From Escherichia phage vB_EcoP_F, in sequence record NC_047808.1: a stretch of 39,300 nt of DNA, one strand, 5' to 3'. The notes under the pieces are model-generated. The model saw nothing but the letters and a program-made list of their open reading frames with translations, ran no database searches and was not told where the DNA came from. Made by a program: the position numbers and the translations under genes. The first letter of the stretch is position 1. Each line of letters opens with the position of its first letter. Of the stretch, positions 1 through 39,300 are shown in pieces.

Positions 1-581
1 ATAACGCCACGAAGAACAACCGAGCGATGGACGCTGCCCTGTCCACTGTGATCTCTATGGGTCTTGCTGGTATCTACTACATGGCTCAGGCTCATGTCAA
101 GGCTTACGCTATGCAGGATGGTCGAGACCGTGACTACCTCAAGCAAGCTCTAGACCCGACGATGATTGGATATGCAGCTCTATCACGTAGTTCACACCTT
201 GGTGGACCACTTGGGGTAGCTAACATTCTGGGTGGCATCGCTGGGTATGAGGACACTAAGATGCTCCGTTCGTCTATCCTACCTCGTTCGCCTACAGAGA
301 AGCCTGAACGTGCCATCGCGTATGGTGCAGCTACAAGTGACCCTGTGATGAATGTTGTTGGTAACTTCTTGGAGCAGGTTCCAGCTTTCGGATATGCTGC
401 TAACGTTGGCGCTTCGGCTTACAACTTGGCTGGCTACCTCAAGGCTGATACTCGTGTCAACGAGCGTGACTACATGACCGGGATGTATAATACGTTCCGT
501 GAACTGGTTCCGAACGACCCAATTACCCAGAAGCTGTTGCTTGGGATGTTTGAGGAGCAAGGTATCCACATCAAGGACTAA
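1..581 (+). CDS. internal virion (core) protein gp16, C-terminal part; 5' truncated by window start, same gene as 35995..39300
   Basis: Track ORF 27..581 is open in frame back to nt 3; translation (..NATKNNRAMDAALSTVISMGLAG..VPNDPITQKLLLGMFEEQGIHIKD) matches recalled T7 gp16 C-terminus; gene order 15-16-17. Confidence 0.85.
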   Translation, partial: NATKNNRAMDAALSTVISMGLAGIYYMAQAHVKAYAMQDGRDRDYLKQALDPTMIGYAALSRSSHLGGPLGVANILGGIAGYEDTKMLRSSILPRSPTEKPERAIAYGAATSDPVMNVVGNFLEQVPAFGYAANVGASAYNLAGYLKADTRVNERDYMTGMYNTFRELVPNDPITQKLLLGMFEEQGIHIKD

Positions 582-599
582 ACTATCACTATAGGAAAC
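577..599 (+). promoter_or_regulatory. phage RNA polymerase promoter (phi17 position), ACTAAACTATCACTATAGGAAAC, +1 G at 594
   Basis: Matches the 11-copy consensus in this window; CACTATAGG core as in T7 -7..+2; upstream gene's TAA stop lies inside promoter. Confidence 0.75.
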
Positions 600-645
600 T
601 GGAGGCGCTACCATAGGTCTCCGTTTAAATAACAAAGGAGGCATA

Positions 646-3600
646 ATGTCCACGATTACACAATTCCCTTCAGGAAACACTCAGTACAGGATTGAGTTCG
701 ACTACCTAGCCAGAACGTTTGTTGTTGTTACGCTGGTGAATAGCTCTAACCCTACCCTGAACCGTGTACTGGAAGTTGGTCGAGATTACCGATTCCTTAA
801 TCCAACGATGATTGAGATGTTGGTTGACCAATCAGGTTTCGACATCGTTCGTATTCACCGTCAGACTGGAACTGACTTAGTGGTAGACTTCAGGAATGGC
901 TCAGTGTTGACAGCTAGTGACCTGACCAATTCAGAGCTTCAGGCTATCCATATTGCAGAAGAAGGTCGAGACCAAACGGTTGACTTAGCGAAGGAATATG
1001 CCGATGCTGCTGGTAGCTCTGCTGGCAACGCTAAGGATAGCGAGGACGAAGCACGCCGAATCGCTGCGAGTATCAGGGCAGCTGGTCTAATTGGCTATAT
1101 TACCCGTCGCTCCTTCGAGAAAGGCTACAACGTTACAACATGGAGCGAGGTCCTGCTATGGGAAGAGGATGGTGATTATTACCGCTGGGATGGTACGCTT
1201 CCAAAGAACGTTCCTGCTGGTTCAACTCCTGAAACTTCCGGTGGGATTGGATTAGGTGCGTGGGTTAGTGTTGGTGATGCGGCTTTAAGAAGTCAGATTT
1301 CAAACCCGGAAGGGGCAATACTCTACCCTGAATTACATAGAGCACGCTGGCTTGATGAAAAAGATGTTCGTGGTTGGGGTGCTAAAGGGGATGGTGTCAC
1401 TGATGATACAGCAGCGTTAACGAGCGCATTAAACGACACACCGGTTGGACAAAAGATTAATGGCAATGGGAAGACATATAAGGTCACATCCCTGCCTGAC
1501 ATTAGCCGCTTCATCAACACTCGTTTCGTTTATGAGCGCATTCCCGGACAACCTCTTTATTATGCCTCTGAAGAATTTGTTCAGGGTGAGCTGTTCAAAA
1601 TAACGGACACCCCTTATTATAATGCGTGGCCTCAGGATAAAGCGTTCGTATATGAGAATGTGATATATGCACCTTACATGGGTAGCGATCGTCATGGTGT
1701 TAGTCGTCTGCATGTATCATGGGTTAAGTCTGGTGATGATGGTCAAACATGGTCTACTCCAGAGTGGTTAACTGATCTGCATCCAGATTACCCTACAGTG
1801 AACTATCATTGTATGAGTATGGGTGTATGTCGCAACCGTCTGTTTGCCATGATTGAAACACGTACTTTAGCCAAGAACGCATTAACCAATTGTGCATTGT
1901 GGGATCGCCCCATGTCTCGTAGCCTGCATCTTACTGGCGGTATCACTAAAGCTGCAAATCAGCGATATGCAACAATACATGTACCAGACCACGGACTATT
2001 CGTGGGTGATTTTGTTAACTTCTCTAATTCTGCGGTAACAGGTGTATCCGGTGATATGACTGTTGCAACCGTAATAGATAAGGACAACTTCACGGTTCTT
2101 ACACCCAACCAGCAGACTTCAGATTTGAATAACGCTGGAACGAATTGGCACATGGGTACTTCTTTCCATAAGTCTCCATGGCGTAAGACGGATCTTGGTC
2201 TAATCCCTAGTGTCACAGAGGTGCACAGCTTTGCTACTATTGATAACAATGGCTTTGTTATGGGCTATCATCAAGGTGATGTAGCTCCACGAGAAGTTGG
2301 GCTTTTCTACTTCCCTGATGCTTTCAATAGCCCATCTAATTATGTTCGTCGTCGGATACCATCTGAGTATGAACCAGATGCGGCAGAGCCATGCATCAAG
2401 TACTATGACGGTGTATTATACCTTATCACTCGTGGCACTCGTGGGGATAGACTAGGTAGCTCTTTGCACCGTAGTAGAGACATAGGTCAGACTTGGGAGT
2501 CACTGAGATTTCCACATAATGTTCATCATACTACATTACCTTTTGCTAAAGTAGGGGATGACCTTATTATGTTTGGTTCAGAACGTGCAGAAAATGAATG
2601 GGAAGCAGGTGCACCAGATGATCGTTACAAGGCATCTTATCCTCGCACCTTCTATGCACGCTTGAATGTAAACAATTGGAATGCAGATGATATTGAATGG
2701 GTTAACATCACTGACCAGATTTATCAGGGCGGAATAGTTAACTCAGGTGTAGGTGTTGGTTCGGTAGTTGTGAAGGATAATTACATCTACTACATGTTTG
2801 GTGGAGAGGACCATTTTAACCCATGGACATATGGAGATAACTCAGCGAAGGATCCATTCAAAGCAGATGGTCATCCCTCAGATTTGTATTGCTACAAAAT
2901 GAAGATTGGCCCAAGCAATCATGTTTCCCGTGATTTCAGGTATGGTGCTGTACCTAACAGAGCTGTTCCCGTGTTTTTTGATACGAATGGGATTCGCACT
3001 GTTCCTGCGCCAATGGAATTTACAGGGGATTTGGGTTTAGGTCATGTGACCATTAGAGCCAGCACCAGTAGTAACATTCGCTCTGAAGTTTTAATGGAAG
3101 GTGAATATGGGTTTATCGGGAAATCTATACCGACTGATAACCCGGCAGGGCAGCGCATCATATTTTGCGGGGGTGAAGGCACCAGTTCAACGACTGGCGC
3201 ACAGATTACGCTTTATGGTGCAAATAACACCGACTCAAGGCGAATAGTTTACAATGGTGCTGAGCATCTGTTCCAGACTGCTGACGTTAAGCCTTATAAC
3301 GATAACGTCACTGCGCTTGGTGGGCCTAGCAACCGTTTCACCACTGCATACCTCGGAAGTAACCCTATTGTTACTTCTAACGGGGAGAAGAAAACAGAGC
3401 CGGTAGTTTTTGATGATGCTTTCCTGGATGCCTGGGGTGACGTTCGCTACATCATGTACCAGTGGTTAGATGCTGTTCAACTGAAAGGCAATGATGCTCG
3501 TATTCACTTCGGGGTTATTGCACAGCAAATTCGTGATGTATTCATTGCACATGGTCTGATGGATGAAAACAGTACGAATTGTCGTTATGCTGTTCTGTGC

Positions 3601-3840
3601 TATGACAAGTATCAACGGATGACCGATACGGTATTTTCGCACAATGAAATCGTTGAACACACTGACGAGGAGGGTAATGTCACTACTACGGAAGAACCTG
3701 TATACACCGAGGTGGTTATTCACGAAGAGGGTGAGGAGTGGGGTGTTCGGCCTGACGGAATTTTCTTTGCTGAAGCCGCTTATCAGAGAAGAAAACTGGA
3801 AAGAATCGAAGCCAGACTTTCTGCTCTTGAACAGAAGTAA
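646..3840 (+). CDS. tailspike protein gp17 with endosialidase (endo-N-acetylneuraminidase) domain and C-terminal intramolecular chaperone domain
   Basis: 1064 aa; N-terminus like T7 gp17 adaptor (FDYLARTFVVVTL..); Asp-boxes SGDDGQTW (1729..1752) and SRDIGQTW (2473..2496); C-terminus GVIAQQIRD..RRKLERIEARLSALEQK typical of self-cleaving chaperone domain; AGGAGG RBS. Confidence 0.85.
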   Translation: MSTITQFPSGNTQYRIEFDYLARTFVVVTLVNSSNPTLNRVLEVGRDYRFLNPTMIEMLVDQSGFDIVRIHRQTGTDLVVDFRNGSVLTASDLTNSELQAIHIAEEGRDQTVDLAKEYADAAGSSAGNAKDSEDEARRIAASIRAAGLIGYITRRSFEKGYNVTTWSEVLLWEEDGDYYRWDGTLPKNVPAGSTPETSGGIGLGAWVSVGDAALRSQISNPEGAILYPELHRARWLDEKDVRGWGAKGDGVTDDTAALTSALNDTPVGQKINGNGKTYKVTSLPDISRFINTRFVYERIPGQPLYYASEEFVQGELFKITDTPYYNAWPQDKAFVYENVIYAPYMGSDRHGVSRLHVSWVKSGDDGQTWSTPEWLTDLHPDYPTVNYHCMSMGVCRNRLFAMIETRTLAKNALTNCALWDRPMSRSLHLTGGITKAANQRYATIHVPDHGLFVGDFVNFSNSAVTGVSGDMTVATVIDKDNFTVLTPNQQTSDLNNAGTNWHMGTSFHKSPWRKTDLGLIPSVTEVHSFATIDNNGFVMGYHQGDVAPREVGLFYFPDAFNSPSNYVRRRIPSEYEPDAAEPCIKYYDGVLYLITRGTRGDRLGSSLHRSRDIGQTWESLRFPHNVHHTTLPFAKVGDDLIMFGSERAENEWEAGAPDDRYKASYPRTFYARLNVNNWNADDIEWVNITDQIYQGGIVNSGVGVGSVVVKDNYIYYMFGGEDHFNPWTYGDNSAKDPFKADGHPSDLYCYKMKIGPSNHVSRDFRYGAVPNRAVPVFFDTNGIRTVPAPMEFTGDLGLGHVTIRASTSSNIRSEVLMEGEYGFIGKSIPTDNPAGQRIIFCGGEGTSSTTGAQITLYGANNTDSRRIVYNGAEHLFQTADVKPYNDNVTALGGPSNRFTTAYLGSNPIVTSNGEKKTEPVVFDDAFLDAWGDVRYIMYQWLDAVQLKGNDARIHFGVIAQQIRDVFIAHGLMDENSTNCRYAVLCYDKYQRMTDTVFSHNEIVEHTDEEGNVTTTEEPVYTEVVIHEEGEEWGVRPDGIFFAEAAYQRRKLERIEARLSALEQK

Positions 3841-3973
3841 TAAACAAAACCCTTTTGCCATTAAGTTGGTGGGGTAGATGTTAGAAGGTTGTGGAGGTAG
3901 AGGCTAACTACACGCTAACCAACGTAGGTAACAACTTTGGGTCACGGACGACCCGCTTTAAACTGGAGGTTTT

Positions 3974-4168
3974 ATGATTGAGTTAGACTTCAAGAATGAG
4001 GTCCTTAAAGCCTCTCCTATCGTCGGGACCGCTGCGGCTGATGGTGCCAGTCGGTTCTTCTTCGGACTTACACTGAACGAATGGTTCTACGTTGCAGCTA
4101 TCGCGTACACCGTTGTCCAGATTGGTGTGCTAGTCTACAAAACGATTAAAGGAGGTGGTAAAACATGA
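3974..4168 (+). CDS. class II holin gp17.5
   Basis: 64 aa; FFFGLTLNEWFYVAAIAYTVVQIG matches recalled T7 gp17.5; GGAGG RBS; position after tailspike. Confidence 0.8.
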   Translation: MIELDFKNEVLKASPIVGTAAADGASRFFFGLTLNEWFYVAAIAYTVVQIGVLVYKTIKGGGKT

Positions 4169-4428
4169 CGCAGATGGACTTAGAGAAGTTCCTCTTGATG
4201 CTTGATACTGAGCGTGCTCGACTTATGCTTCAAGACTTGCGGGATGACACTAAGCGTTCACCTCAGCTCTACAACGCCATTGAGAAGCTGCTTGCTCGTC
4301 ACAACTTTGTGTTAAGTAAGGTGTCTGTGGACGAGAAGACGCTGGCTGATATGGAGGCCCTGAACGCAGAGTATGATAAGGTGCTTTCAGCGACTGAGGA
4401 TAATGACACAGGGTATGGTGTTCAATAA
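4165..4428 (+). CDS. terminase small subunit gp18
   Basis: 87 aa, size and position as T7 gp18; ATGA overlap with holin stop. Confidence 0.75.
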   Translation: MTQMDLEKFLLMLDTERARLMLQDLRDDTKRSPQLYNAIEKLLARHNFVLSKVSVDEKTLADMEALNAEYDKVLSATEDNDTGYGVQ

Positions 4429-4480
4429 GTGTTAGACTCAAGGTCATTACTATATGTAGTGGCCTTTATGGTTAACACTA
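4429..4480 (+). promoter_or_regulatory. candidate RNase III processing hairpin (R18.5 position) containing motif TAGACTCAAGGTCAT
   Basis: Imperfect inverted repeat GTGTTA..TAACAC enclosing the recurrent motif; intergenic, same relative position as T7 R18.5. Confidence 0.3.
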
Positions 4481-4529
4481 ACTAGTGGAGGCGACTCTAC
4501 GTGAAATCTGATAAACCGGGAGGGCAACT

Positions 4530-4979
4530 ATGCTCGAATTTTTAAAGAGAGCGGCTCCGTGGTTACTTGCAGCAGTGATGTTTGCTGGTGGCTACCACAC
4601 CGCTAACAATAAGTGGGAGGCTAAGGTCAATGCAGAATACACCTCGAATCTTAAGGCATCGGAGGATACAAGGCTTGCTGTCCAAGCTGAAGTCAACAAA
4701 GTGTCCAAACGGTTCCAGGACGAAATGTCCTCGTTGGAAGGCAGCACTGATAGGATTATTGCTGACCTTAAGTCTGACAATAAGCGGCTGCTCATCCGAG
4801 TCAAACCTACGAGTGGAACCACGCAAAGTGACGGTCGATGCTTCATTGATGGTTACGCCGAACTTGACGAACGAGATGCTAAACGTCTTATCGCCATCGG
4901 AGTGAAAGGAGACAAGTGGATTAAGGCCCTTCAAGACACTGTGAGAGCCTTACAGCAAGAGAAGGAGGTGACGCATTGA
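4530..4979 (+). CDS. Rz-like i-spanin gp18.5
   Basis: 149 aa; N-terminal TM segment ([12 protein letters not shown]) then coiled-coil-like region; GGGAGG RBS; position before large terminase. Confidence 0.75.
4630..4905 (+). CDS. Rz1-like o-spanin lipoprotein embedded in +1 frame of Rz
   Basis: Embedded ORF with signal/lipobox LTISGC (Cys codon 4789..4791), proline-rich C-terminus; ATG 4630 preceded by GGGAGG at 4615..4620; start uncertain (track uses TTG at 4582). Confidence 0.45.
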   Translation: MQNTPRILRHRRIQGLLSKLKSTKCPNGSRTKCPRWKAALIGLLLTLSLTISGCSSESNLRVEPRKVTVDASLMVTPNLTNEMLNVLSPSE

Positions 4980-6739
4980 GTAAAGACTTAGTGGCGCGTC
5001 AGGCGCTAATGACTGCCCGTATGAAGGCAGACTTCGTGTTCTTCCTGTTCGTCCTGTGGAAAGCTCTGTCACTCCCGGTCCCGACTCGCTGTCAGATTGA
5101 CATGGCGAAGAAACTATCGGCTGGCGACAACAGGCGTTTCATCCTACAGGCGTTCCGTGGTATCGGGAAGTCCTTCATTACGTGTGCATTCGTGGTCTGG
5201 AAACTATGGAACAACCCAGACTTGAAGTTCATGATTGTGTCGGCCTCAAAGGAACGAGCCGATGCGAACTCCATCTTCATCAAGCGAATCATCGACCTCA
5301 TGCCTCAGCTTAAGGAACTCAAACCTAAGCAGGGACAGCGAGATGCGGTTATCAGCTTCGACGTTGGACCAGCCAAGCCGGACCACTCACCTTCGGTTAA
5401 GTCCGTTGGTATCACTGGTCAGTTGACTGGTAGTCGTGCTGACATCCTGATTGCCGATGACGTGGAGGTTCCGAACAACTCAGCGACTCAGGCTGCACGA
5501 GACCGTCTGTCAGAGCTTGTGAAAGAGTTCGATGCTATCCTGAAGCCCGGAGGCACAATCATCTATCTGGGTACTCCTCAGAACGAGATGACCCTGTATC
5601 GTGAGCTGGAAGGTCGTGGGTACACCACTACTATCTGGCCTGCTCGTTATCCACGCGACAGGAAGGACTGGCAGTCTTACGGCGACCGTCTGGCTCCTAT
5701 GCTTCAGGCAGAACTGGAAGAGGACCCTGAGTCCTTCTACTGGCGTCCGACCGACGAGGTACGCTTCGATGATACGGACCTGAAGGAACGTGAGTTGTCA
5801 TATGGCAAGGCTGGCTTCGCTCTACAGTTCATGCTTAACCCGAACCTGAGTGATGCTGAGAAGTACCCTCTGAAGCTCCGTGACCTTATCGTAGCTGACT
5901 TGGACCCAGCGTCTAGCCCAATGGTCTACCAATGGCTTCCTAACCCTCAGAACAAGCGTGAGGACGTTCCTAACGTTGGACTCATGGGGGACTCATACCA
6001 CACGTATCAGACTGTAGGTTCTGCCTTCAGTTCGTACACCCAGAAGATTCTAGTCATTGACCCTAGTGGTCGTGGTAAGGATGAAACTGGTTATGCGGTA
6101 CTGTACCAGCTAAACGGCTACATCTTCGCTATGGAAGTTGGCGGTATGCGGGGCGGCTATGAAGACTCTACGCTGGAAGCCCTGGCTAAGATTGGTCGTA
6201 AGTGGAAGGTCAACGAATACGTAATTGAGGGTAACTTCGGTGATGGTATGTACCTTGAGCTATTCAAGCCTGTAGCTTCCCGTATTCATCCTGCTGCTGT
6301 AACTGAAGTGAAGAGTAAGGGTCAGAAGGAACTCCGCATCTGTGACGTTCTGGAGCCTATCATGGGGTCTCACCGACTTATCATCAACGCTGCTGCTATC
6401 GTCCAAGATTACCAGTCTGCCTCTGATAAGGATGGTGTTCGTAATCCTATCTACTCTCTCTTCTACCAGATGACACGTATCTCTCGTGAACGTGGAGCAT
6501 TGGCACACGATGACCGACTTGATGCGCTGGCTATCGGTGTACAGTTCTTCGTTGAGTCTATGGCGAAGGATGCCAACAAAGGCGAACGTGAAGTCACTGA
6601 GGAGTGGCTGGAAGAACAGATGGAGAACCCACGGAAAGGCTTCGAGTCCATCCACACTGAGTTCTGGGACAATGGGGTCCGGGTAACTCACGATACGGAC
6701 GACGAGCTTGGACTAGGGTCCTACGTTACGTTCCACTAG
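4976..6739 (+). CDS. terminase large subunit gp19
   Basis: 587 aa; strong similarity to recalled T7 gp19 from the first residues ([33 protein letters not shown]); apparent TTG start 4976 overlapping Rz stop, GAAGGAGG RBS upstream. Confidence 0.9.
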
Positions 6740-7356: not shown

Positions 7357-7447
7357 ACTGTAGTCAAGGACTTTAGGTAACACCTTAATAGAAGCTCACT
7401 TAGGGTCATCCTACTTATTGGTCCATCCTAGTGTCGCCTGACCTACG

Positions 7448-7490
7448 GTCCTTGACCTACAGTGGCTGTGGCCTACAGTAGTGACGATGA
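7448..7490 (+). repeat. short imperfect direct repeats (GACCTACGG / GACCTACAGTGG / GGCCTACAGTAG), right-end array
   Basis: Three CCTACAG-like units at about 14-bp spacing immediately before predicted terminus; analogous to T7 short-repeat array adjacent to terminal repeat. Confidence 0.3.
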
Positions 7491-7517
7491 GTTTTGGACC
7501 AAAAGTTTGAGACCACA

Positions 7518-7715
7518 TCTCACAGTTCAAGAACCTCAAGTCTCCCCATAGGCCCTCTTTAAGTCCAGACCAAAGGCCCTACCCAGTCTATCATAAGGCT
7601 GGACCGATGGTCGACGATAGGTCTAGGCTATGGCTGGAGGTCAGGACGATAGGTAGGGACTATTGGTCTGTCTCTGAGTCTCTATCTGTATAGTGATATA
7701 GTATAACATTACGTC
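7518..7715 (+). other. predicted physical genome terminus and terminal-repeat region (single collapsed copy); left end predicted at 7518
   Basis: TCTCACAGTTCAAGAACC..CCCCATAGG at 7518 resembles recalled T7/T3 left-terminal sequence (TCTCACAG..); non-coding; flanked by short-repeat arrays; right boundary not determinable. Confidence 0.3.
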
Positions 7716-7815
7716 CTACACCTACAGTCCTACACCTACAGTCCTACAACCTACAGTCCTACAACCTACAGTCACAACCATAAGACACCAACACCTACAG
7801 TCATAGACCTACAGT
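7716..7815 (+). repeat. array of imperfect short tandem repeats (unit approx CCTACA[A]CCTACAGT, 14-15 bp period)
   Basis: cctacacctacagtcctacacctacagtcctacaacctacagtcctacaacctacagtc.. seen directly; position equals T7 left-end short-repeat array. Confidence 0.5.
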
Positions 7816-14765: not shown

Positions 14766-15201
14766 GGTGGGGGATACAGTTGAATATGTTGGACCAGTTG
14801 AAGCCTACACGGGACGCTCCTGTGGCAAGGTGATAGTGGTTAAGAATGAGCATGTAGCTGTTGTTAAGTGGCCCGGTTTATCTGAACCACTCAGTCACTC
14901 CATTAGCTCCTTAAGTATTACCAATCAGGCTCAGTCCGAGCCGACAACCATAGGTCAGGGAGATAGCGTCCGTAAGCCGTCGCACTATCAGGTCTTTGAC
15001 GGTGTGGAATCCATTGAGATTATCGCCCGGTCCATGACTGTCAGTGAGTTCCGTGGTTTCTGCATGGGTAACGTCCTGAAGTATCGACTCCGAGCTGGTA
15101 AGAAGTCAGAGCTGGCTACTATGGAGAAGGACCTGAACAAAGCAGCCTTCTATCAGGAGTTGTTCGACCTGCATAAAGGTAAGTGCTATGACTCCAAGTA
15201 G
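14758..15201 (+). CDS. gp1.7-like nucleotide kinase (C-terminal domain conserved)
   Basis: 147 aa; KPSHYQVFDGVESIEIIARSMTVSEFRGFCMGNVLKYRLRAGKKSEL matches recalled T7 gp1.7 C-terminus; shorter N-terminus than T7. Confidence 0.7.
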   Translation: MVKVGDTVEYVGPVEAYTGRSCGKVIVVKNEHVAVVKWPGLSEPLSHSISSLSITNQAQSEPTTIGQGDSVRKPSHYQVFDGVESIEIIARSMTVSEFRGFCMGNVLKYRLRAGKKSELATMEKDLNKAAFYQELFDLHKGKCYDSK

Positions 15202-15279
15202 CTGGTGCTTTAGACAGTGGGTCTCAACCGGGAATGTGGACTACCTGTCCATGTACCATATGTGGAAGGAGAAAGGACT

Positions 15280-15438
15280 ATGAGCCTTGAAGAAAAGAAG
15301 TACATCGTGGAGCTTGAGGGACGCGTTCAGTCCTTCGAGGTTCCGTTGTACGCAAAGTCTCTTGAAGAGGCTACCCTGAAGTCCCAAGAGTATGAGGACG
15401 CTGGGTTTGTGGTCGGACGGATTCGTCCTGAGACCTAA
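15280..15438 (+). CDS. gp2-like inhibitor of host RNA polymerase
   Basis: [24 protein letters not shown] matches recalled T7 gp2; start ATG 15280 with GGAAGGAG RBS (track ORF starts 15217). Confidence 0.7.
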
Positions 15439-15456
15439 ACTATCACTGTAGGACAG
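15434..15456 (+). promoter_or_regulatory. phage RNA polymerase promoter variant (phi2.5 position), CCTAAACTATCACTGTAGGACAG (-3 A to G)
   Basis: Consensus match except one core substitution. Confidence 0.55.
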
Positions 15457-15495
15457 ACGTCCAGTTCGTAACTTTAAAATAGGAGATTTACACCG

Positions 15496-16194
15496 ATGGC
15501 TAAAGAGCAACTGAAGACTTTCACCACTCCGGTAGCTGGCATAGTTGAGCCTTACGCATGGCTGAACAAAGCAGACACCAAGTTTAACGAGCGTGGTGAG
15601 CATAAGGTTAACCTGACATTCGACCTGAGCAACCCGAAGGTCCGTAAGATGATTGATGTCTTACAGAAGATTCACGACGATGCGTATGCGAAAGCACTTG
15701 CAGACCACGAGAAGAACCCACCTCAGGTTCAGCGTGGCAAGAAGCCTATTGAACCACGAGAAGGCGACATGCCGTGGATTGAGAATGGTGACGGTACTGT
15801 TACCTTGAAGTTTAAATGCTTCGCGTCTTACCTGAAGGATGGTAAGTCTGAGCCTATCGTATTACGGTTCTACGACACCGATGCTAAGTTAATCCGTGAC
15901 GTCCCGAATATTGGCGCTGGCTCAAAGCTGAAGGTCAAGTTTAAAGTCCTGCCGTTTAAGTGGAACGCTGCGACTGGTGCAAGCGTTAAGCTCCAACTTG
16001 AGTCCTGCCTTCTGGTAGAACTGAAGGAGTGGAAAGGCGATGGTGCTGGTGGCGATGGTGGTTGGGGTGATGATGAAGACCTCGGTACTGGCTACAAAGC
16101 GTCAACCGATGGTGACTTCGGGTCTGATGACTTCGGTGACGATGGTTCCGAAGGTGGTTCCGAGTCCAACTCTGGTGGCGATTACGACTTCTAA
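15496..16194 (+). CDS. single-stranded DNA-binding protein gp2.5
   Basis: 232 aa, same length as T7 gp2.5; acidic C-terminal tail ending in F (..GGDYDF). Confidence 0.9.
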   Translation: MAKEQLKTFTTPVAGIVEPYAWLNKADTKFNERGEHKVNLTFDLSNPKVRKMIDVLQKIHDDAYAKALADHEKNPPQVQRGKKPIEPREGDMPWIENGDGTVTLKFKCFASYLKDGKSEPIVLRFYDTDAKLIRDVPNIGAGSKLKVKFKVLPFKWNAATGASVKLQLESCLLVELKEWKGDGAGGDGGWGDDEDLGTGYKASTDGDFGSDDFGDDGSEGGSESNSGGDYDF

Positions 16195-19517: not shown

Positions 19518-19550
19518 TTACGAGAAGTATAAATGGAGGGTTCCATTCTA

Positions 19551-19856
19551 ATGTTACGAAAACTTAAAGCTCGCTACCATCGGTTCATGTACAAATGGTG
19601 GAGTGACGAAGCAACCTGCCTGTCCAACATTCTGGGAGACCAAAGGTTCGAAGGCGTGGGGAGGGTAAAGCTCGCTACCATCGGTTCATGTACAAATGGT
19701 GGAGTGACGAAGCAACCTGCCTGTCCAACATTCTGGGAGACCAAAGGTTCGACTCCGAGGCGTGGAAGAGAGCTAACCGGAAGTTTATGTATCACTTCTT
19801 GCGTACAGACTTCTAGGTCTAGACTCAAGGTCATTCATAGCGAGTGGCCTGTATGA
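19551..19856 (+). CDS. hypothetical protein ORF altered by an internal 101-bp tandem duplication (gene 4.x region)
   Basis: GGAGGG RBS before ATG 19551; reading passes through repeat copy 1 in one frame and copy 2 in another. Confidence 0.3.
   Translation: MLRKLKARYHRFMYKWWSDEATCLSNILGDQRFEGVGRVKLATIGSCTNGGVTKQPACPTFWETKGSTPRRGRELTGSLCITSCVQTSRSRLKVIHSEWPV
19565..19766 (+). repeat. tandem direct duplication, period 101 bp, 87 bp identical (19565..19651 = 19666..19752)
   Basis: Seen directly: TAAAGCTCGCTACCATCGGTTCATGTACAAATGGTGGAGTGACGAAGCAACCTGCCTGTCCAACATTCTGGGAGACCAAAGGTTCGA twice. Confidence 0.85.
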
Positions 19857-19880: not shown

Positions 19881-22052
19881 ATGTTTGACTTTAAGAGTAT
19901 CTGGGGTTCTGACATCGAGACCAACGGTCTCCTTGATACAGTCTCCCAGTTTCACTGTGGGGTCCTGATTAACGCCGAGTCGAATGAGACCCTTAAGTAT
20001 GGGGTAGCTCCGATGGTCGGTATCGTCGGCGGCTTCAAAGAGTATGTTCATAAAGTGGAAGAGATTGCCGCATCACCTGATGGTATGCTGGTATTCCATA
20101 ACGGTATCAACTATGACGTCCCGGCTATAGACAAGCTGAAGCGTTTGTACTTTGGGAAACGCTTTAACTTCCCGAAACATAAGATGATTGATACCTTGGT
20201 GCTGGGACGCTTGATGTATCCAAACATTAAGTTCTCAGACATGGGCGCAGTGAAAGCTGGTCGTCTGCCACCTAAGATGATGGGACGCCAGTCTCTTGAG
20301 GCTTGGGGCTATCGTCTCGGTGAGATGAAAGGTGAGTACAAACACGATTACGTTGCCAAGTGCAAGGCTGAAGGTATCGAATATAAGGCTGGGGACGAAT
20401 GGTTGTTCCCGTCTCAGGAGATGCTGGACTATAACGTTCAAGACGTTGTGGTCACACTGGCGTTGTTCAAGAAGTTCCTGACTGACAAGTATTACTTCCA
20501 GTCTGAACAGTTCGCTTTCGACCAGATTTATGCGTTGCGTCTGGAACATGATGCTGCGTGGACCTGTGCGAAGATGGAACGTAACGGCTATCCGATGAAC
20601 ACCGAGATGGTCGAAGGTTTATATCGTGAACTCACCGTCAAACGTGCAGAGCTGCTGGACAAGCTGCGTTCGACTTTCGGCAGCTGGTACGCACCAAAGG
20701 GAGGCAAGGAGTTCTTCAAGCACCCACGGACAGGCAAGGACCTTCCGAAGTATCCGCGCGTCGTGTATCCTAAGGTCGGGTCAGTATTCAAGAAGCCGAA
20801 GAACAAAGCTCAACGCTTAGGTCTGGAGCCTTGCGAGTTCGACTCACGAGACACGATGGAGGGAGCGCCGTTCACACCTATCACTTACGTTGAGTTTAAT
20901 CCGGGAAGCGGGGACCACTTAGCGAAAGTTCTGATGGAGCGTGGCTGGGAGCCTGTGGACTTCACTGACACCGGGAAACCTGTAGTCGATGACGAGACGT
21001 TGGAACACGTTAAGTTACCAGACGCAGAGGCTCAGGCTTGCGTAGAGCTGGTCCGTGAATATCTGGTGGTCCAGAAGCGCATCGGTCAGGCTGCTGAAGG
21101 TAAGAACGCATGGTTGAAACTTGTAGGTCCAGACGGGCGTATGCACGGTTCAATCAACCCATGCGGGGCAGTAACCGGACGTGCGACTCACAGTTCACCA
21201 AACATGGCTCAGGTCCCGGCTAACGGTGCTCCATACGGTGAGACTTGCCGTGGTGCTTTCGGTGCAGCGTGGAACAAGAAGGACGGTACGCCAGACCCTT
21301 GGATTCAAGTAGGCGTGGATGCTTCAGGTCTTGAGCTTCGTTGTCTGGGGAACCGAGCGGCTCCGTTTGATGGTGGCGCCTATGCGAAGACTGTGGTCGA
21401 AGGTGACATCCACTGGGCCAACGCAGTCAACGCTGGGTTAGCACCTAACGTCCCACGCAATAAGTCCAGCCACGACCATGATGCTTTCCGTAACAACGCT
21501 AAGACGTTCATCTATGCGTTCCTATATGGTGCAGGGGCCGCGAAGATTGGACTGATAGTTGGCGGTGGTAAGAAGGAAGGTGCTGCCCTGATGAAGAAAT
21601 TCATTGAGGGTACACCAGCTATTAAAGACCTCAGGGAAGCTGTGAGTAATACGTTAATCTCCGAATCCAAATGGGTAGATGGAGAGAACATCGTGAAGTG
21701 GAAACGTCGCTGGCTGAAAGGTCTGGATGGTCGCCGTATCCACATCCGGTCTCCACACTCAGCACTAAACGCATTACTTCAAGGCGATGGTGCGGTTGTC
21801 TGTAAGCACTGGATTGTAGAGACTGAACGTATGCTTGAAGAGGCAGGGTATGTTCACGGCTGGGAGGGGGACTTCGCGTACATGGCCTGGGTTCACGACG
21901 AATTGCAGATTGCGTGCCGTACTCAGGAGATTGCCGAAGAAGTCGTCAAGATTGCTCAACTTGCTATGCGTAAGGTGGGTGAGTTCTATAACTTTAAATG
22001 TGTCCTTGATACCGAAGGTAAGATTGGACCAACGTGGAAGGAGTGTCACTAA
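19881..22052 (+). CDS. DNA polymerase gp5 (family A, with 3'-5' exonuclease)
   Basis: 723 aa; position and size as T7 gp5; GGAGG RBS. Confidence 0.95.
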   Translation: MFDFKSIWGSDIETNGLLDTVSQFHCGVLINAESNETLKYGVAPMVGIVGGFKEYVHKVEEIAASPDGMLVFHNGINYDVPAIDKLKRLYFGKRFNFPKHKMIDTLVLGRLMYPNIKFSDMGAVKAGRLPPKMMGRQSLEAWGYRLGEMKGEYKHDYVAKCKAEGIEYKAGDEWLFPSQEMLDYNVQDVVVTLALFKKFLTDKYYFQSEQFAFDQIYALRLEHDAAWTCAKMERNGYPMNTEMVEGLYRELTVKRAELLDKLRSTFGSWYAPKGGKEFFKHPRTGKDLPKYPRVVYPKVGSVFKKPKNKAQRLGLEPCEFDSRDTMEGAPFTPITYVEFNPGSGDHLAKVLMERGWEPVDFTDTGKPVVDDETLEHVKLPDAEAQACVELVREYLVVQKRIGQAAEGKNAWLKLVGPDGRMHGSINPCGAVTGRATHSSPNMAQVPANGAPYGETCRGAFGAAWNKKDGTPDPWIQVGVDASGLELRCLGNRAAPFDGGAYAKTVVEGDIHWANAVNAGLAPNVPRNKSSHDHDAFRNNAKTFIYAFLYGAGAAKIGLIVGGGKKEGAALMKKFIEGTPAIKDLREAVSNTLISESKWVDGENIVKWKRRWLKGLDGRRIHIRSPHSALNALLQGDGAVVCKHWIVETERMLEEAGYVHGWEGDFAYMAWVHDELQIACRTQEIAEEVVKIAQLAMRKVGEFYNFKCVLDTEGKIGPTWKECH

Positions 22053-22500: not shown

Positions 22501-22706
22501 GTGAATACTTACGGGTCCTAGCGGCCCTTAAGTCCTGCCCGAAGACCTTCCAGTCCAACTATGTGCGCAACAACGCTGCACTTGTGGCTGAGGCTGCGAG
22601 TCGTGGACATCTAAGCTGCCTGTCTATGGATGGGCGTAACAACGGTGCGTGGGAGATTACCGCTGAAGGCACCAAGTTCCTGAACCAACACGGAGGCTGT
22701 CTATGA
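22497..22706 (+). CDS. gp5.7-like protein
   Basis: 69 aa; LKSCPKTFQSNYVRNNAALVAEAASRGH matches recalled T7 gp5.7. Confidence 0.6.
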   Translation: MSEYLRVLAALKSCPKTFQSNYVRNNAALVAEAASRGHLSCLSMDGRNNGAWEITAEGTKFLNQHGGCL

Positions 22707-23152
22707 AGATACCTGAAAGTCTGAAAGAGCTGGTCCTTGAAATGGGTGAGTGCGAGATGACGCACCGTAAGTATGCTGAGTTCTACGCATCTTGGTCTTA
22801 CACCCTGACCGAGAAGGACGTTGAGTCCTACACCGAGTCTCCTTCTGAGGCTTATGAGTGGAGTCCGTTCATCGGACTGACCATCGTAGCTAGCGGTATG
22901 TGGGATGACAGCTACGGCTCAGAGGTAAACGACTGGGACGTGTACCGCCAAGTTGAGAAGGAGACCGAAATGTCTTCCAACTTCTGGAGCCTGATGTCCC
23001 ACCTCAACTCAGATGACAACGACATGGCCCATGAGTTCGCCAACAAATGGCTGAAGCCTGAGGTGACTCTGGAACGTATTGAGGAGCCTAAAGTTCCCTT
23101 GATGCCATATGCAGTCGCTATGGCTACAGGAGGTCTGGACGATGGGTGCTGA
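22703..23152 (+). CDS. hypothetical acidic Trp-rich protein, 149 aa, at gene 5.9 position
   Basis: Track ORF; ATGA coupling; no resemblance to the 52-aa T7 gp5.9. Confidence 0.5.
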   Translation: MKIPESLKELVLEMGECEMTHRKYAEFYASWSYTLTEKDVESYTESPSEAYEWSPFIGLTIVASGMWDDSYGSEVNDWDVYRQVEKETEMSSNFWSLMSHLNSDDNDMAHEFANKWLKPEVTLERIEEPKVPLMPYAVAMATGGLDDGC

Positions 23153-29318: not shown

Positions 29319-29408
29319 ATGTTTTACTTACTTACAGCCTTGGGACTATTTGTTAGTTTCTGGGCGATTATATTATTAACCGGACCATGCAGTCCTTACG
29401 ACAGATAG
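29319..29408 (+). CDS. hypothetical small hydrophobic peptide, 29 aa, between terminator and gene 11
   Basis: GAGG RBS; MFYLLTALGLFVSFWAIILLTGPCSPYDR; low certainty. Confidence 0.3.
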   Translation: MFYLLTALGLFVSFWAIILLTGPCSPYDR

Positions 29409-29416
29409 GAGGGAGT

Positions 29417-29983
29417 ATGGCTCAATACATTCCACTGAATGCTAACGATGACTTAGACGCTATCAACGATATGTTAGCTGCTATCGGTGAACCGGCAGTC
29501 CTACAGCTTGACGAGGGGAACGCTGACGTCTCGAACGCCCAACGTATCCTGCATCGTGTCAATCGTCAGGTCCAAGCTAAAGGCTGGAACTTTAACATCA
29601 ATGAAGCTGCTGTCCTGACACCTGATGTCCAAGACAATAGGATTCGATTCTTGCCGTCATACCTTCGTGTAATGACCGCTGGGGCCACCAGCTACTACAG
29701 CAACATGGGTGGATACCTGTACGACCTGTCCACTCAGTCGACCACTTTCACCGACCCTATCACGGTAGAGCTTGTGGAGATGAAGCCATTCTCCGAGATG
29801 CCTGTGGTCTTCAGGGACTACATCGTCACTAAAGCTAGCCGTGAGTTCAACGCTAAGTTCTTCGGTAGCCCAGAGTCTGAACTGTACCTTCGTGAGCAGG
29901 AAGCAGAACTCTATCAGCAGGTCATGGAATACGAGATGGATACTGGTCGCTACAACATGATGTCTGACATCGGGAGAGACTAA
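29417..29983 (+). CDS. tail tubular protein A gp11
   Basis: Start ATG 29417 (GGAGGGAG RBS); AAIGEP, KGWNFNINE, FRDYIVTKASREFNAKFFG, MEYEMD match recalled T7 gp11. Confidence 0.9.
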   Translation: MAQYIPLNANDDLDAINDMLAAIGEPAVLQLDEGNADVSNAQRILHRVNRQVQAKGWNFNINEAAVLTPDVQDNRIRFLPSYLRVMTAGATSYYSNMGGYLYDLSTQSTTFTDPITVELVEMKPFSEMPVVFRDYIVTKASREFNAKFFGSPESELYLREQEAELYQQVMEYEMDTGRYNMMSDIGRD

Positions 29984-30219: not shown

Positions 30220-32577
30220 ATGCCACTAATTACTCAATCAATCAAGAACCTTAAAGGTGGCATTAGCCAACAGCCTGATATACTGAGGTTCTCAGACCAA
30301 GGCGAGGCACAGGTTAACTGCTGGTCATCCGAGAGTGATGGCCTCCAGAAGCGCCCACCTACAGTCTTCAAGCGACGTCTTAACATCGACGTTGGGAGCA
30401 ACCCTAAGTTCCACCTGATTAACCGTGACGAGCATGAGCAGTATTACATCGTGTTCAATGGGTCCAACATTCAGGTAGTTGACTTGAGTGGTAATCAATA
30501 CTCAGTGTCAGGTGCGGTAGACTACGTTAAGTCCTCCAACCCACGAGATGACATCCGTGTCGTTACCGTGGCAGACTATACGTTCGTCGTTAACCGTAAG
30601 GTTGTCGTCAAAGGTGGAAGCGAGAAGTCACACTCTGGTTATAACCGCAAAGCACGAGCTTTAATTAACCTGCGTGGTGGACAGTATGGTCGAACCCTTA
30701 AGGTGGGAATCAACGGTGGCGTTAAGGTCTCGCATAAGCTACCAGCAGGTAATGATGCCGAGAATGACCCGCCTAAGGTGGACGCTCAAGCCATTGGTGC
30801 AGCTCTGAGAGACCTTCTTGTTACTGCCTACCCTACCTTCACGTTTGACCTTGGGTCTGGATTCCTGCTAATCACAGCTCCTTCAGGGACCGATATTAAC
30901 TCAGTGGAGACGGAGGATGGCTACGCTAACCAGCTAATAAGCCCAGTCCTAGACACTGTGCAGACAATCTCTAAACTACCTCTTGCCGCTCCTAATGGGT
31001 ATATCATTAAGATTCAAGGTGAGACAAACAGTAGCGCCGATGAATACTACGTGATGTATGACTCCAACACTAAGACGTGGAAGGAGACAGTGGAGCCGGG
31101 AGTTGTCACTGGGTTCGATGTCACCACAATGCCACATGCTCTGGTAAGACAGTCTGACGGCTCCTTTGAGTTCAAGACTCTGGATTGGTCCAAGCGTGGT
31201 TCTGGTAACGATGACACAAACCCTATGCCTAGCTTCGTGGATGCTGCGATTAATGATGTGTTCTTCTACAGGAACAGACTTGGGTTCTTGTCGGGTGAGA
31301 ACGTAATCATGAGCCGTTCAGCCAGCTACTTTTCGTTCTTCCCTAAGAGTGTGGCGACACTGAGTGATGATGACCCTATTGATGTAGCTGTAAGTCACCC
31401 TCGAATCTCAATCCTTAAGTATGCCGTTCCGTTTAGCGAGCAGCTACTACTTTGGTCGGATGAGGTTCAGTTCGTGATGACAAGCTCTGGGGTCCTTACC
31501 TCGAAGTCTATCCAGCTTGATGTAGGCTCAGAGTTTGCCTTAGGCGACAATGCCAGACCGTTCGCTGTAGGACGCTCAGTCTTCTTCTCAGCTCCTCGTG
31601 GGTCATTCACCAGCATTAAGCGATACTTCGCTGTAGCTGATGTGTCTGATGTGAAGGATGCTGATGATACAACCGGTCACGTATTGTCCTACATCCCTAA
31701 CGGGGTGTTTGATATTCAAGGTACAGGGACTGAGAACTACATCTGCGTCAACTCTACAGGTGCATACAACCGTATCTACATCTACAAGTTCTTGTTTAAG
31801 GACGGCGTACAGCTTCAAGCCTCTTGGTCACACTGGGAGTTCCCTAAAGATGATAAGATTCTGGCGTCTGCTTCTATTGGCTCTACCATGTTCATCGTTC
31901 GTCAGCATCAAGGAGGGGTAGACATTGAGCACCTTAAGTTCATCAAGGAGGCAACTGACTTCCCGTCAGAGCCATATAGACTACACATTGACTCCAAGGT
32001 GTCTATGGTAATTCCAATTGGCTCATATAATGCTGACACCTATAAGACTACGGTTGACATTGGTGCTGCTTATGGTGGCAACGCTCCGTCTCCCGGTCGG
32101 TACTATCTGATTGACAGTCAGGGTGCTTATGTGGACCTTGGGGACTTGACCAGTATCTCTACTGTGATTACCCTCAACGGCGATTGGTCAGGACGTACAG
32201 TGTTCATCGGACGGCCCTATCTGATGTCCTACAAGTTCTCACGGTTCCTGATTAAGATTGAAGATGATAGGGGCACTCAGTCTGAAGACACTGGTCGTCT
32301 ACAGCTTCGTCGGGCCTGGGTCAACTACAAGGACACTGGCGCTCTGAGACTCATTGTCAGAAACGGTGAGCGAGAGTTCGTTAACACCTTTAATGGGTAC
32401 ACCCTTGGTCAGCAAACCATAGGGACTACTAACATTGGTGACGGGCAGTATCGCTTCGCTATGAATGGTAACGCATTAACCACGAGTCTAACCTTAGAGT
32501 CCGACTATCCTACCCCAGTGTCCATCGTTGGGTGTGGCTGGGAGGCATCATACGCTAAGAAAGCTCGTTCAGTCTAA
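30220..32577 (+). CDS. tail tubular protein B gp12
   Basis: 785 aa; position and size as T7 gp12; AGGAGGG RBS. Confidence 0.9.
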   Translation: MPLITQSIKNLKGGISQQPDILRFSDQGEAQVNCWSSESDGLQKRPPTVFKRRLNIDVGSNPKFHLINRDEHEQYYIVFNGSNIQVVDLSGNQYSVSGAVDYVKSSNPRDDIRVVTVADYTFVVNRKVVVKGGSEKSHSGYNRKARALINLRGGQYGRTLKVGINGGVKVSHKLPAGNDAENDPPKVDAQAIGAALRDLLVTAYPTFTFDLGSGFLLITAPSGTDINSVETEDGYANQLISPVLDTVQTISKLPLAAPNGYIIKIQGETNSSADEYYVMYDSNTKTWKETVEPGVVTGFDVTTMPHALVRQSDGSFEFKTLDWSKRGSGNDDTNPMPSFVDAAINDVFFYRNRLGFLSGENVIMSRSASYFSFFPKSVATLSDDDPIDVAVSHPRISILKYAVPFSEQLLLWSDEVQFVMTSSGVLTSKSIQLDVGSEFALGDNARPFAVGRSVFFSAPRGSFTSIKRYFAVADVSDVKDADDTTGHVLSYIPNGVFDIQGTGTENYICVNSTGAYNRIYIYKFLFKDGVQLQASWSHWEFPKDDKILASASIGSTMFIVRQHQGGVDIEHLKFIKEATDFPSEPYRLHIDSKVSMVIPIGSYNADTYKTTVDIGAAYGGNAPSPGRYYLIDSQGAYVDLGDLTSISTVITLNGDWSGRTVFIGRPYLMSYKFSRFLIKIEDDRGTQSEDTGRLQLRRAWVNYKDTGALRLIVRNGEREFVNTFNGYTLGQQTIGTTNIGDGQYRFAMNGNALTTSLTLESDYPTPVSIVGCGWEASYAKKARSV

Positions 32578-35990: not shown

Positions 35991-35994
35991 CATA

Positions 35995-38900: not shown

Positions 38901-39300
38901 CGGTACGACCAACTACCTGTTAGATGCTGGACGTCAAGGCTTCCTGTCTGACATCGTGGAGCATAGCCTGACTGGTAGTAAGCGTAAGTTCGATGACCGC
39001 TGGCTTAAGACCGCTGGTATCTCTGACGAGCAGTGGAAGGGCATTAAGTCCCTCATCCGTGAGTCAGTGACTCGTGGTCCAGACGGGAAGTACACCATCA
39101 AGGATAAGAAGGCGTTCAGTCAGGACCCAAGGGCTATGGACCTATGGCGTATGGGTGATACCATCGCTGACGAAACGTTACTACGTCCTCATAAGCTGTC
39201 CAACATGGACGCAAAGGCTTATGGTCCTCTCGCTAAGACTGTCCTTCAGTTTAAGAACTTCGTCATCAAGTCCATCAATGGACGTACCATGCGAACCTTC
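35995..39300 (+). CDS. internal virion (core) protein gp16, N-terminal part; 3' truncated by window end, continues at window start
   Basis: Open frame from ATG 35995 to last base (1102 codons, no stop), which is why it is absent from the ORF track; end ..VLQFKNFVIKSINGRTMRTF aligns with recalled T7 gp16 just upstream of the residues at window start. Confidence 0.9.
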   Translation, partial: MATRGIRNNNPGNIRVSKDQWEGMTGDDGAFVTFDSPESGVRALGKNLLSYGRRGYDSIEKIINRWAPPNENDTKAYIDSVVAATGIPATQSLDLSDPDTLSSLAQAISFHETGSRYDPEVYQKGVARALNGISPKTPPVSANVFDALTEGLKAKPKVALGENLPTAAGLNIEGQAPEAPNESFGEMFYKSTGETMQEREDRSTWFGFGSATEAEVKNSMVGVAIRAGQTEDSLDVIGDVFNPTRWNNHKWTREELDQIRNAGVLPQYYGVITGGSPQNLTELINLALENQKLDQEKAKAGTGAQLAAGVIGAGVDPLTYVPIAGQIGKGGKLVNKMFTVAAQSGALAGVSEMARTSVAGGDAHVAEAILGGALFGGGMTAIADGLGRALGRNTNEFAGPATRLEARETARNIDGQDLSRLPIQEGEQTFSHQGVKFADVPNEPGSVRLEDGSILIGENPLNPKTRKVFDEVIEPERAAAGVNLGGLTEIGLKLLRSENPEIRGVAADLVRSPTGMQSGASGKIGTTASDVFERLRAVDHRFYNDIDDAVTEALKDPYFQTAFWRDSGAFRQDIYQRVSMAIEDGSGNLKAELTPGELKVYDLLKNQFDAKREMMENPAMFGRPDAQSIFPGSRFKGTYVPHVYSNQMKELYIKELGSPEALQEAIKKSWLTSYASRPEVKKRVDEALLEADPTLTPEGLAAAVDKYANDKAYGISHTEQFERSSVMEENINGLVGLENNSFLEARNLFDSDMSIVLPNGQTFSVNNLREWDMDKIVPAYNRRVNGDIAIMAGTGKTTKDMKDLVETMMNKAGDDGKLKGEVSTLRDTLKILTGRARRDGADDAAFATVMRTMTDLSFFAKNAYMGVQNLTEIGGMLARGNVRAMLHGVPIFRDLAFRNKKVGASEIKDLHNVIFGKELDDSIRPSKQDVIDRLRSYSDLGRGTATALGTAKYYTGELAVRSPFTKVLNGTTNYLLDAGRQGFLSDIVEHSLTGSKRKFDDRWLKTAGISDEQWKGIKSLIRESVTRGPDGKYTIKDKKAFSQDPRAMDLWRMGDTIADETLLRPHKLSNMDAKAYGPLAKTVLQFKNFVIKSINGRTMRTF

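Follow-up and report, generated by a model that had tools for sequence, protein, structure and literature searches.

Gene 17 of coliphage vB_EcoP_F: an endosialidase-type tailspike with an exchanged host-range cassette

The stretch of DNA analysed here, referred to throughout as the window, is 39,300 bp long and carries at 646..3840 gene 17, the tailspike gene, preceded by a Shine-Dalgarno sequence and a putative promoter. The features of the locus, all on the plus strand, are as follows.

577..599 (+): putative phage-RNA-polymerase promoter upstream of gene 17, overlapping the gene 16 stop codon
635..641 (+): Shine-Dalgarno sequence AAGGAGG, read from the sequence and separated by 4 nt from the ATG at 646
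646..3840 (+): gene 17, endosialidase tailspike precursor; open reading frame with ATG start, 1064 aa and TAA stop
646..1281 (+): anchor segment, aa 1–212, common to non-K1 Kayfunavirus tailspikes; ~95% DNA identity to phage LS3
673..990 (+): T7 gp17 N-terminal tail-attachment domain, aa 10–115; Pfam PF03906 Phage_T7_tail, 58 bits (cut-off 25.2)
1111..1278 (+): TSP1/gp66-type tailspike N-terminal domain, aa 156–211; Pfam PF18668 Tail_spike_N, E 4.9e-19; ends at the recombination border
1282..3883 (+): exchanged host-range cassette, aa 213–1064 plus 43 nt past the stop codon; no blastn match to LS3
1381..1581 (+): endosialidase N-terminal extension, aa 246–312; Pfam PF12218 End_N_terminal, E 3.3e-38; where the crystallised fragment of endoNF begins
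1582..2907 (+): catalytic six-bladed beta-propeller, aa 313–754; Pfam PF12217 End_beta_propel, E 9.5e-222, profile positions 1–366 of 367
1693–1695, 2290–2292, 2386–2388, 2431–2433 and 2584–2586 (+): propeller codons for His350, Arg549, Glu581, Arg596 and Arg647, respectively
1729..1752 (+): Asp-box 1, SGDDGQTW, aa 362–369, from the translation; fits S-x-D-x-G-x-T-W
1915..2163 (+): beta-barrel inserted in the propeller, aa 424–506; Pfam PF12195 End_beta_barrel, E 3.1e-47
2473..2496 (+): Asp-box 2, SRDIGQTW, aa 610–617, from the translation; fits S-x-D-x-G-x-T-W
2914..3375 (+): stalk domain, aa 757–910; Pfam PF12219 End_tail_spike, E 4.8e-79
3376..3837 (+): C-terminal intramolecular chaperone/autoprotease, aa 911–1064; Pfam PF13884 and PDB 3gw6
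3376–3378 and 3391–3393 (+): codons for Ser911 and Lys916

Gene 17 and the domains of its product

From first to last residue the gene 17 product is an exact match to the vB_EcoP_F tail protein (AQT25396.1 / YP_009789073.1), with no detectable difference between the two. Comparison with endosialidases, the check proposed alongside the initial annotation, returned 98.3% identity to K1F gene 17 at both the nucleotide and amino-acid level, and matches at E=0 to the endoNF structures 3gvl/1v0e over aa 245–910; the sequence offers no evidence against a K1F-type endosialidase identity. Seven Pfam domains, each above its curated cut-off, are arranged as a T7 gp17-like anchor, a TSP1/gp66-type N-domain, an endosialidase N-extension, a propeller with its inserted beta-barrel, a stalk and a Peptidase_S74 chaperone. 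K1F gp17 endoNF (PDB 1v0e, 3gvj-l, 3ju4; chaperone 3gw6) is equal in length, domain order and functional residues, and solved structures at 98–99% identity span the protein, with aa 1 to about 250 covered by 9vvr_A and aa 245–1064 by endoNF. The flanking genes are likewise shared with K1F, 16 upstream and 17.5, 18, 18.5 and 19 downstream.

The anchor predicted initially is present, in the sense of an N-terminal domain with homology to about residues 1–150 of T7 gp17: in addition to the Pfam match, T7 gp17 structure 7boz aligns over aa 6–116 (E 1e-15), as do 8dsp and 8e4g, with about 40% amino-acid identity over aa 6–113. Its cognate docking partners, the tail tubular proteins gp11 and gp12, are also encoded in the window (PF17212 Tube, 29387–29983; PF25675 nozzle, 30220–32577). 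Downstream of the anchor, the TSP1/gp66-type domain matches the PDB tailspikes 4oj5, 5w6h and 6nw9, and shares 50–63% amino-acid identity with tailspikes of unrelated phages. This domain was missing from the architecture first proposed, as were the inserted beta-barrel and the stalk, but the parts that had been named all stand.

Both Asp-boxes of the propeller lie exactly where they had been placed, and are the only two sites matching S.D.G..W in a six-frame translation of the whole window; two or more matches occurred in 0 of 20,000 shuffles of the gene 17 protein, with a mean of 0.008. In the stalk, Arg837, Ser848 and Gln853, residues described in the endoNF structural literature, are kept, together with Arg812 and Tyr821. 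The five propeller residues His350, Arg549, Glu581, Arg596 and Arg647, whose catalytic and substrate-binding roles have been described (PMC13564897), are all kept at homologous positions, and the beta-barrel and stalk carry the second and third polysialic-acid binding sites, respectively (PMC13564897).

The proposed self-cleaving chaperone domain is also recognisable, its autocleavage being predicted from the characterised homologue. Peptidase_S74 (PF13884) matches aa 914–971 (37.7 bits, cut-off 22) at the C-terminus, directly after the triple-beta-helix stalk, and the endoNF chaperone structure 3gw6 matches aa 790–1064 (E 1.8e-182). In the K1F record gene 17 is annotated as an endosialidase whose mature peptide ends before Ser911, with the products named gp17* and gp17-CTD, the released C-terminal domain; on the basis of that border, the Ser911/Lys916 numbering presumably holds here. 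Ser911, Asn912, Lys916, Gly956 and Asp994 are kept. The Ser-Lys dyad and the essential residues of S74 chaperone domains, here Asn912 and Gly956, have been described (PMC3742443), with residue roles also given in PMC13564897. Altogether, 23 of the 23 catalytic, binding and chaperone residues checked are conserved; beyond Arg837, Ser848 and Gln853 of the stalk, this set comprises those named in a deep mutational scan (PMC13564897) and in the MYRF paper (PMC3742443).

The motif ..A..TATCAC..TAGG occurs 11 times in the window, its commonest core being CTAAACTATCACTATAGG, and one of these occurrences, ACTAAACTATCACTATAGGAAAC (577..599), lies upstream of the gene; the architecture of T7-group promoters suggests that this copy may act as a promoter. 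Sites resembling sigma-70 promoters and intrinsic terminators were no commoner in 1–5000 than in shuffled sequence, and the intergenic RNA folds at 577–650 and 3836–3975 were not more stable than shuffles (z -0.59 and +0.06). Because the 3836–3975 fold is no more stable than shuffles, no terminator is claimed downstream of gene 17, although one is annotated in an old K1F record. Across the whole window, neither Rfam at gathering thresholds nor tRNA scanning gave a hit. Antisense and out-of-frame open reading frames inside 646–3840 were set aside as mechanical ORFs without support.

The phage backbone and the exchanged cassette

The backbone genes of the window are T7-like, comprising a T7-type RNA polymerase, primase-helicase, DNA polymerase A, portal, capsid and terminase, as well as the tail tube and nozzle on which the spike is mounted. 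To K1F, 95.7% of the window aligns at about 94.5% identity; the homing-endonuclease insert that K1F carries in its DNA polymerase gene is absent. The nearest record in the phage collection searched is FFK3, classified in Kayfunavirus, from which the window differs at 486 positions (98.76% identity), the same value that the FFK3 paper gives against vB_EcoP_F (PMC9697832). The published genome of phage F measures 39,465 bp and has terminal repeats of 165 bp (PMC5582158), and a 39,300-bp window holding one copy of the 165-nt repeat, at 7518–7682, fits this. Judged by sequence, the backbone, which is collinear and encodes a single-subunit RNA polymerase, is assigned to Kayfunavirus (K1F group) and is T7-like in gene set. 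The "T7 backbone" of the initial annotation is therefore upheld for the gene set but refined to Kayfunavirus, the anchor being only about 40% identical to T7 gp17.

A modular host-range swap had also been proposed, and comparison with LS3, a non-K1 Kayfunavirus, bears this out and fixes its borders. The two DNAs are about 95% identical as far as nt 1281 (codon 212), show no identity over 1282–3883, and are about 97% identical thereafter. The exact borders, nt 1281/1282 and 3883/3884, are added by the present analysis. At 2602 nt, the cassette is the largest block unmatched to LS3 in the genome, compared with at most 441 nt elsewhere. It is AT-richer than the backbone, with a GC content of 44.7% against 50.0% for the genome, and a GC3 of 37.9% against 51–63% in nine backbone genes.

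Non-K1 Kayfunavirus tailspikes have the same anchor, over aa 1–212 in LS3 gp45 and to about aa 250 in 9vvr_A, and their promoter region and flanking genes are the same at 95–97% DNA identity. Over aa 1–220 the gene 17 product is 91% identical to LS3, and from 9vvr_A, an 843-aa tail spike protein, it differs at two positions over aa 1–230, diverging after about aa 250. What follows the anchor in LS3 gp45 (877 aa) and 9vvr_A is unrelated, and these receptor-destroying parts are the other allele of the swap.

The cassette core has a relative on a different backbone and in a different gene neighbourhood, in the Vectrevirus vB_EcoP_K (K1E/SP6-like, Molineuxvirinae), a phage of another subfamily, whose host is the same K1 strain as that of phage F. 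DNA identity to the phage K endosialidase gene is 86.5% over window positions 1516–3143, and the core proteins are 71% identical over aa 234–1055, the phage K protein being shorter (811 aa, CDS of 2436 nt). As this protein match starts only at aa 234, no similarity to the T7-type anchor is detected. The T7-type anchor thus appears to be the K1F solution only, with phage K carrying the endosialidase core without detected anchor similarity.

Such a chimeric architecture could in principle arise from an assembly artefact joining two phages, and the record does contain assembly artefacts elsewhere: gene 16, within which the circular junction falls, lacks one base there. The same full-length architecture is nevertheless found in 29 independent phage records (at least 80% DNA coverage), including in K1F as sequenced by two laboratories, so that the probability of an artefact is considered negligible.

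Enzymatic activity and variation relative to K1F

Endosialidase activity and autocleavage are predicted from the 98% identity to a characterised enzyme and from the published phage F phenotype. Gene 17 could instead be a decayed copy whose product has lost catalysis and can do no more than bind polysialic acid, with infection proceeding via another receptor-binding protein. No support for this was found; the reading frame is intact, the catalytic residues are all kept, selection is purifying (dN/dS of 0.13–0.19 against four relatives), and the window contains no second endosialidase or Asp-box-bearing ORF. K1F has moreover been described as a single receptor-binding protein system (PMC13352976), and a dead copy is considered highly improbable.

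An active enzyme could still differ from that of K1F in specificity or efficiency while keeping the endosialidase fold, for example with respect to O-acetylated and non-acetylated K1 capsule, in which case the term "K1-specific" would be too coarse. Between the two proteins 18 residues differ (T95N, A96S, E141A, M152I, A241V, K499T, A538V, Q570R, S580A, S740A, D757S, R759H, V783I, D872A, S878T, R915K, H934R and P990Q), of which S580A adjoins the catalytic Glu581 and R915K adjoins Lys916. Ala580 is found in phiHAO2-2 as well, and Lys915 in FFK3, phiYIO1-1 and phiHAO2-2. In a comparison of five sequences, four of the changes are seen in this one alone: K499T, which lies in the beta-barrel, Q570R, S740A and P990Q. 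Position 740 lies between G730/N732 and G742, host-discriminating loop positions (PMC13564897), and the close relative FFK3 lysed only three of nine clinical E. coli isolates (PMC9697832). Against this, the named discriminating and catalytic positions are all unaltered, the replacements are conservative and dN/dS is low; a K1 strain supports growth of phage F (PMC5582158), and in the mutational scan single substitutions opened no non-K1 hosts (PMC13564897). A shift in specificity or efficiency is held to be unlikely.

The lineage-specific K499T, S580A and S740A could conceivably, at similarly low probability, tune which K1 strains are handled relative to K1F, for instance by favouring capsule with or without O-acetylation. 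Of these three, S740A belongs to the cluster of loops that discriminated between K1 hosts in the K1F mutational scan (PMC13564897), S580A is next to the catalytic Glu581, and K499T is located in the binding domain formed by the beta-barrel. If true, such tuning would amount to natural variation on the same axes that the scan mapped.

Host range and proposed mechanism

Nine K1-specific phages, with phage F among them, were reportedly described by Smith and Huggins in 1982. The K1 host range first proposed from the gene agrees with the published record: the exact protein belongs to vB_EcoP_F, which is K1-specific and was propagated on E. coli O18:K1:H7 ColV+ (PMC5582158).

By analogy with K1F, the C-terminal domain (aa 911–1064) would guide trimerisation of the precursor, and would then cut itself off before Ser911 using the Ser911-Lys916 dyad. 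Mature trimers would attach to the tail via the T7 gp17-like anchor, six spikes per virion. The spike would bind polysialic acid at the propeller, beta-barrel and stalk, and cleave it in the propeller active site formed by His350, Arg549, Glu581, Arg596 and Arg647, allowing the virion to bore through the K1 capsule and reach the outer membrane. Binding and cleavage of polysialic acid would therefore confine the host range to E. coli encapsulated in this polymer (K1), with other surface features probably further modulating which K1 strains are infected.

Two GenBank records with genes 97.6–97.8% identical to gene 17 list non-K1 hosts, MG1655 and Acinetobacter baumannii. If correct, these entries would question strict K1 dependence; they are regarded as unverified metadata. 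Overall, it is close to certain that gene 17 is the gene for an endo-alpha-2,8-sialidase tailspike in a T7-like coliphage of the K1F group.

The initial annotation had rightly judged this to be known biology: the protein, its structure, the self-cleaving chaperone, the role in K1 host range and phage vB_EcoP_F itself have all been published. As discovery the result adds little; the practical gain is a confident label for the window, that of a Kayfunavirus dependent on the K1 capsule. The swap borders, in turn, mark where natural recombination exchanges receptor-destroying modules, in the same junction region that is used by phage engineers.

Architecture and conservation of the gene 17 tailspike

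Gene 17 (646..3840, + strand) begins with ATG, comprises 1064 codons and ends in TAA, and its product is exactly the sequence deposited as AQT25396.1 / YP_009789073.1, ‘tail protein [Escherichia phage vB_EcoP_F]’. The Pfam search returned seven domains, each exceeding its curated cut-off, and translation of both stretches places the two Asp-boxes at the coordinates originally claimed for them.

Features of gene 17, its product and its upstream region
577-599: phage promoter motif; this copy overlaps the stop codon of gene 16
635-641: strong Shine-Dalgarno sequence, upstream of gene 17
1729-1752, + strand: Asp-box 1, SGDDGQTW (aa 362-369)
2473-2496, + strand: Asp-box 2, SRDIGQTW (aa 610-617)
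aa 10-115: Phage_T7_tail (Pfam)
aa 156-211: Tail_spike_N, TSP1/gp66 type (Pfam)
aa 246-312: End_N_terminal (Pfam)
aa 313-754: End_beta_propel (Pfam, E 9.5e-222)
aa 424-506: End_beta_barrel (Pfam), an insert within the propeller
aa 757-910: End_tail_spike (Pfam)
aa 914-971: Peptidase_S74 (Pfam)

The T7 gp17-like anchor, sialidase β-propeller and C-terminal chaperone domain described in the initial annotation are all recovered, and a search of solved structures agrees: aa 6-116 match T7 gp17 (7boz), aa 245-910 match the K1F endosialidase structures (1v0e, 3gvj-l; E=0), and the endoNF chaperone domain (3gw6) aligns with aa 790-1064, for which self-cleavage is predicted. The anchor is composite, with aa 1-113 being T7 gp17-like (40% identity) and aa 150-225 resembling tailspike N-terminal domains from unrelated phages. 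Both octapeptides conform to the Asp-box pattern; a six-frame translation of the whole 39.3-kb window contained no S.D.G..W outside these two sites, and at least two copies arose in 0 of 20,000 shuffles of the tailspike protein.

The proposed homology check against endosialidases, when run, matched the endoNF structures and gave 98.3% identity to K1F gene 17 in both DNA and protein, with 18 residue differences; one K1F record distinguishes, within that gene's annotation, a precursor, the mature endosialidase (gp17*) and the C-terminal chaperone domain released from it. All 23 functional positions checked are unchanged. These comprise catalytic or binding residues (His350, Arg549, Glu581, Arg596, Arg647), the propeller core (Gln330, Asp331, His527, Ser528, Lys585, Asn699), the stalk (Arg812, Tyr821, Arg837, Ser848, Gln853, Arg866), the chaperone domain (Ser911, Asn912, Lys916, Gly956, Asp994) and Lys410. 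Arg837, Ser848 and Gln853 we take to be functional stalk positions from the endoNF structural literature. Against four close relatives, gene 17 has a dN/dS of 0.13-0.19, and is therefore under purifying selection. Roles for the other 20 residues come from a K1F deep mutational scan (PMC13564897) and a MYRF paper that deals with this chaperone domain (PMC3742443).

Exchange of the enzyme cassette on a T7-like backbone

The backbone is T7-like in replication (single-subunit RNA polymerase, T7-type primase-helicase, family A DNA polymerase) and in virion structure and packaging (portal, Gp10A-like capsid, tail tube, nozzle, T7-type terminase). The promoter motif occurs 11 times in the window, its commonest core being CTAAACTATCACTATAGG; holin, small terminase, Rz-like spanin and large terminase genes lie 3' of gene 17, and the intergenic regions flanking it showed no significant RNA structure and no terminator.

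The modular swap proposed earlier is borne out by LS3, a non-K1 Kayfunavirus in which the gene 17 product is an unrelated spike of 877 aa. Identity to LS3 is ~95% from gene 16 up to and including nt 1281 (codon 212), blastn finds no LS3 match within 1282-3883, and identity returns at 96.7% from 3884, 43 nt beyond the gene 17 stop codon. This 2602-nt cassette is the largest LS3-unmatched segment genome-wide (the runner-up is 441 nt), which supports its description as the defining accessory feature. Its left border falls immediately after the Tail_spike_N domain, whereas the 843-aa tail spike protein of PDB 9vvr_A shares the anchor to ~aa 250 and diverges after a conserved GAKGDGVTD motif, so the junction used is not always the same.

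Cassette GC is 44.7% against 50.0% for the genome, and GC3 is 37.9% against 51-63% in nine backbone genes. The cassette core (window 1516-3143) shares 86.5% DNA identity with the endosialidase gene of vB_EcoP_K, a Vectrevirus of a different subfamily isolated on a K1 strain also used for phage F. The LS3 borders, the composition and the vB_EcoP_K identity show that the enzyme module has been laterally exchanged between phage lineages.

Genome ends and near relatives

Positions 7518-7682 (165 nt) align with both the left and right ends of the K1F genome, and thus represent the direct terminal repeat, present as a single copy in the window; as in K1F, it starts TCTCACAGTT and ends GTCTCTGAGTCTC. 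With the second copy added, the genome as packaged would reach 39,465 bp (39,300 + 165), which is the size published for phage F. Within and just right of the terminal repeat (7436-7815) there are short repeats of 14 nt (CCTACACCTACAGT and variants), reminiscent of the arrays found close to the genome ends of T7-group phages. The record ends split gene 16, which encodes internal virion protein D (35992-39300 joined to 1-581). Relative to K1F, the 39300|1 junction lacks exactly one base (T), so that the halves of the gene are out of frame upon circularisation; the probable cause is an artefact of assembly or trimming. In the FFK3 record, the 3' piece (27..581) carries its own annotation as a ‘hypothetical protein’.

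A ~101-nt tandem duplication (19565-19765; copies 94% identical) between the primase-helicase and DNA polymerase genes is also found in FFK3, whereas K1F has a single copy. The length of the unit is not divisible by three, and in ORF 19533..19856 a small gene (phrog_13039; match limited to aa 7-41) is fused to out-of-frame sequence. The ~600-bp homing endonuclease insert of the K1F polymerase gene (K1F 14935-15535; CDS annotated as joined) is missing from the window (site 21895-21897), leaving polymerase ORF 19881..22052 unbroken. ORF 22703-23152 (149 aa) is a small accessory gene, located between the gp5.5-like H-NS inhibitor region and the gene for the exonuclease. Neither K1F nor LS3 has a DNA match to it, and it falls in phrog_4382 (unknown function; E 1e-48).

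The window differs from FFK3 (ON548433.1) by 486 substitutions and 0 indels (98.76% identity), the very value that the FFK3 paper gives against vB_EcoP_F (PMC9697832). Substitutions are uneven: each 3-kb bin has ~41-60 of them across the first 21 kb and 1-29 between 21 and 36 kb (≤9 in four of these five bins), and the 36-39 kb bin has 71. Together with the lack of indels, and a length and gene coordinates exactly as in the window, this suggests that FFK3 was assembled with vB_EcoP_F as a guiding reference, is a recombinant mosaic, or both.

Host range and proposed mechanism

Published work on K1F allows activity, trimerisation, autoproteolysis and docking to be proposed for this tailspike. 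The C-terminal domain would drive trimerisation and stalk folding, then remove itself by Ser-Lys autoproteolysis (PMC3742443); mature trimers would dock on the tail via the anchor, and polysialic acid would bind at three sites, with cleavage taking place in the propeller (PMC13564897). The enzymatic part of K1F, grafted onto a Klebsiella phage, was sufficient for growth on E. coli K1 (PMC13352976).

Endosialidase genes 97.6-97.8% identical to gene 17 occur in PV615262.1 and MZ311862.1, with named hosts of E. coli K-12 MG1655 for one phage and Acinetobacter baumannii for ‘Acinetobacter phage vB_Aba_01KA’; both entries look doubtful for a polysialic-acid-dependent spike and are treated as unverified. 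The 90% cluster that holds the tailspike also contains a partial ‘phage tail fiber domain-containing protein’ of 180 aa, attributed to Pantoea dispersa and located on a 2.5-kb contig; phage DNA contaminating a bacterial assembly is the likely explanation.

Baig et al. 2017 (PMC5582158) place phage F in the Smith and Huggins (1982) set of nine K1-specific phages; they give E. coli O18:K1:H7 ColV+ as its propagation host, 39,465 bp as its genome size and 165 bp as the length of its direct terminal repeats. The K1 host range implied by the initial annotation is therefore already experimental fact for vB_EcoP_F; what was observed there is confirmed as stated and its interpretation supported. Host range is not set by K1 specificity alone: K1 strains differed from one another in the K1F mutational scan (PMC13564897), and FFK3 lysed only three of nine clinical isolates, with haloed plaques (PMC9697832). 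The tailspike is already known biology, down to this individual phage.
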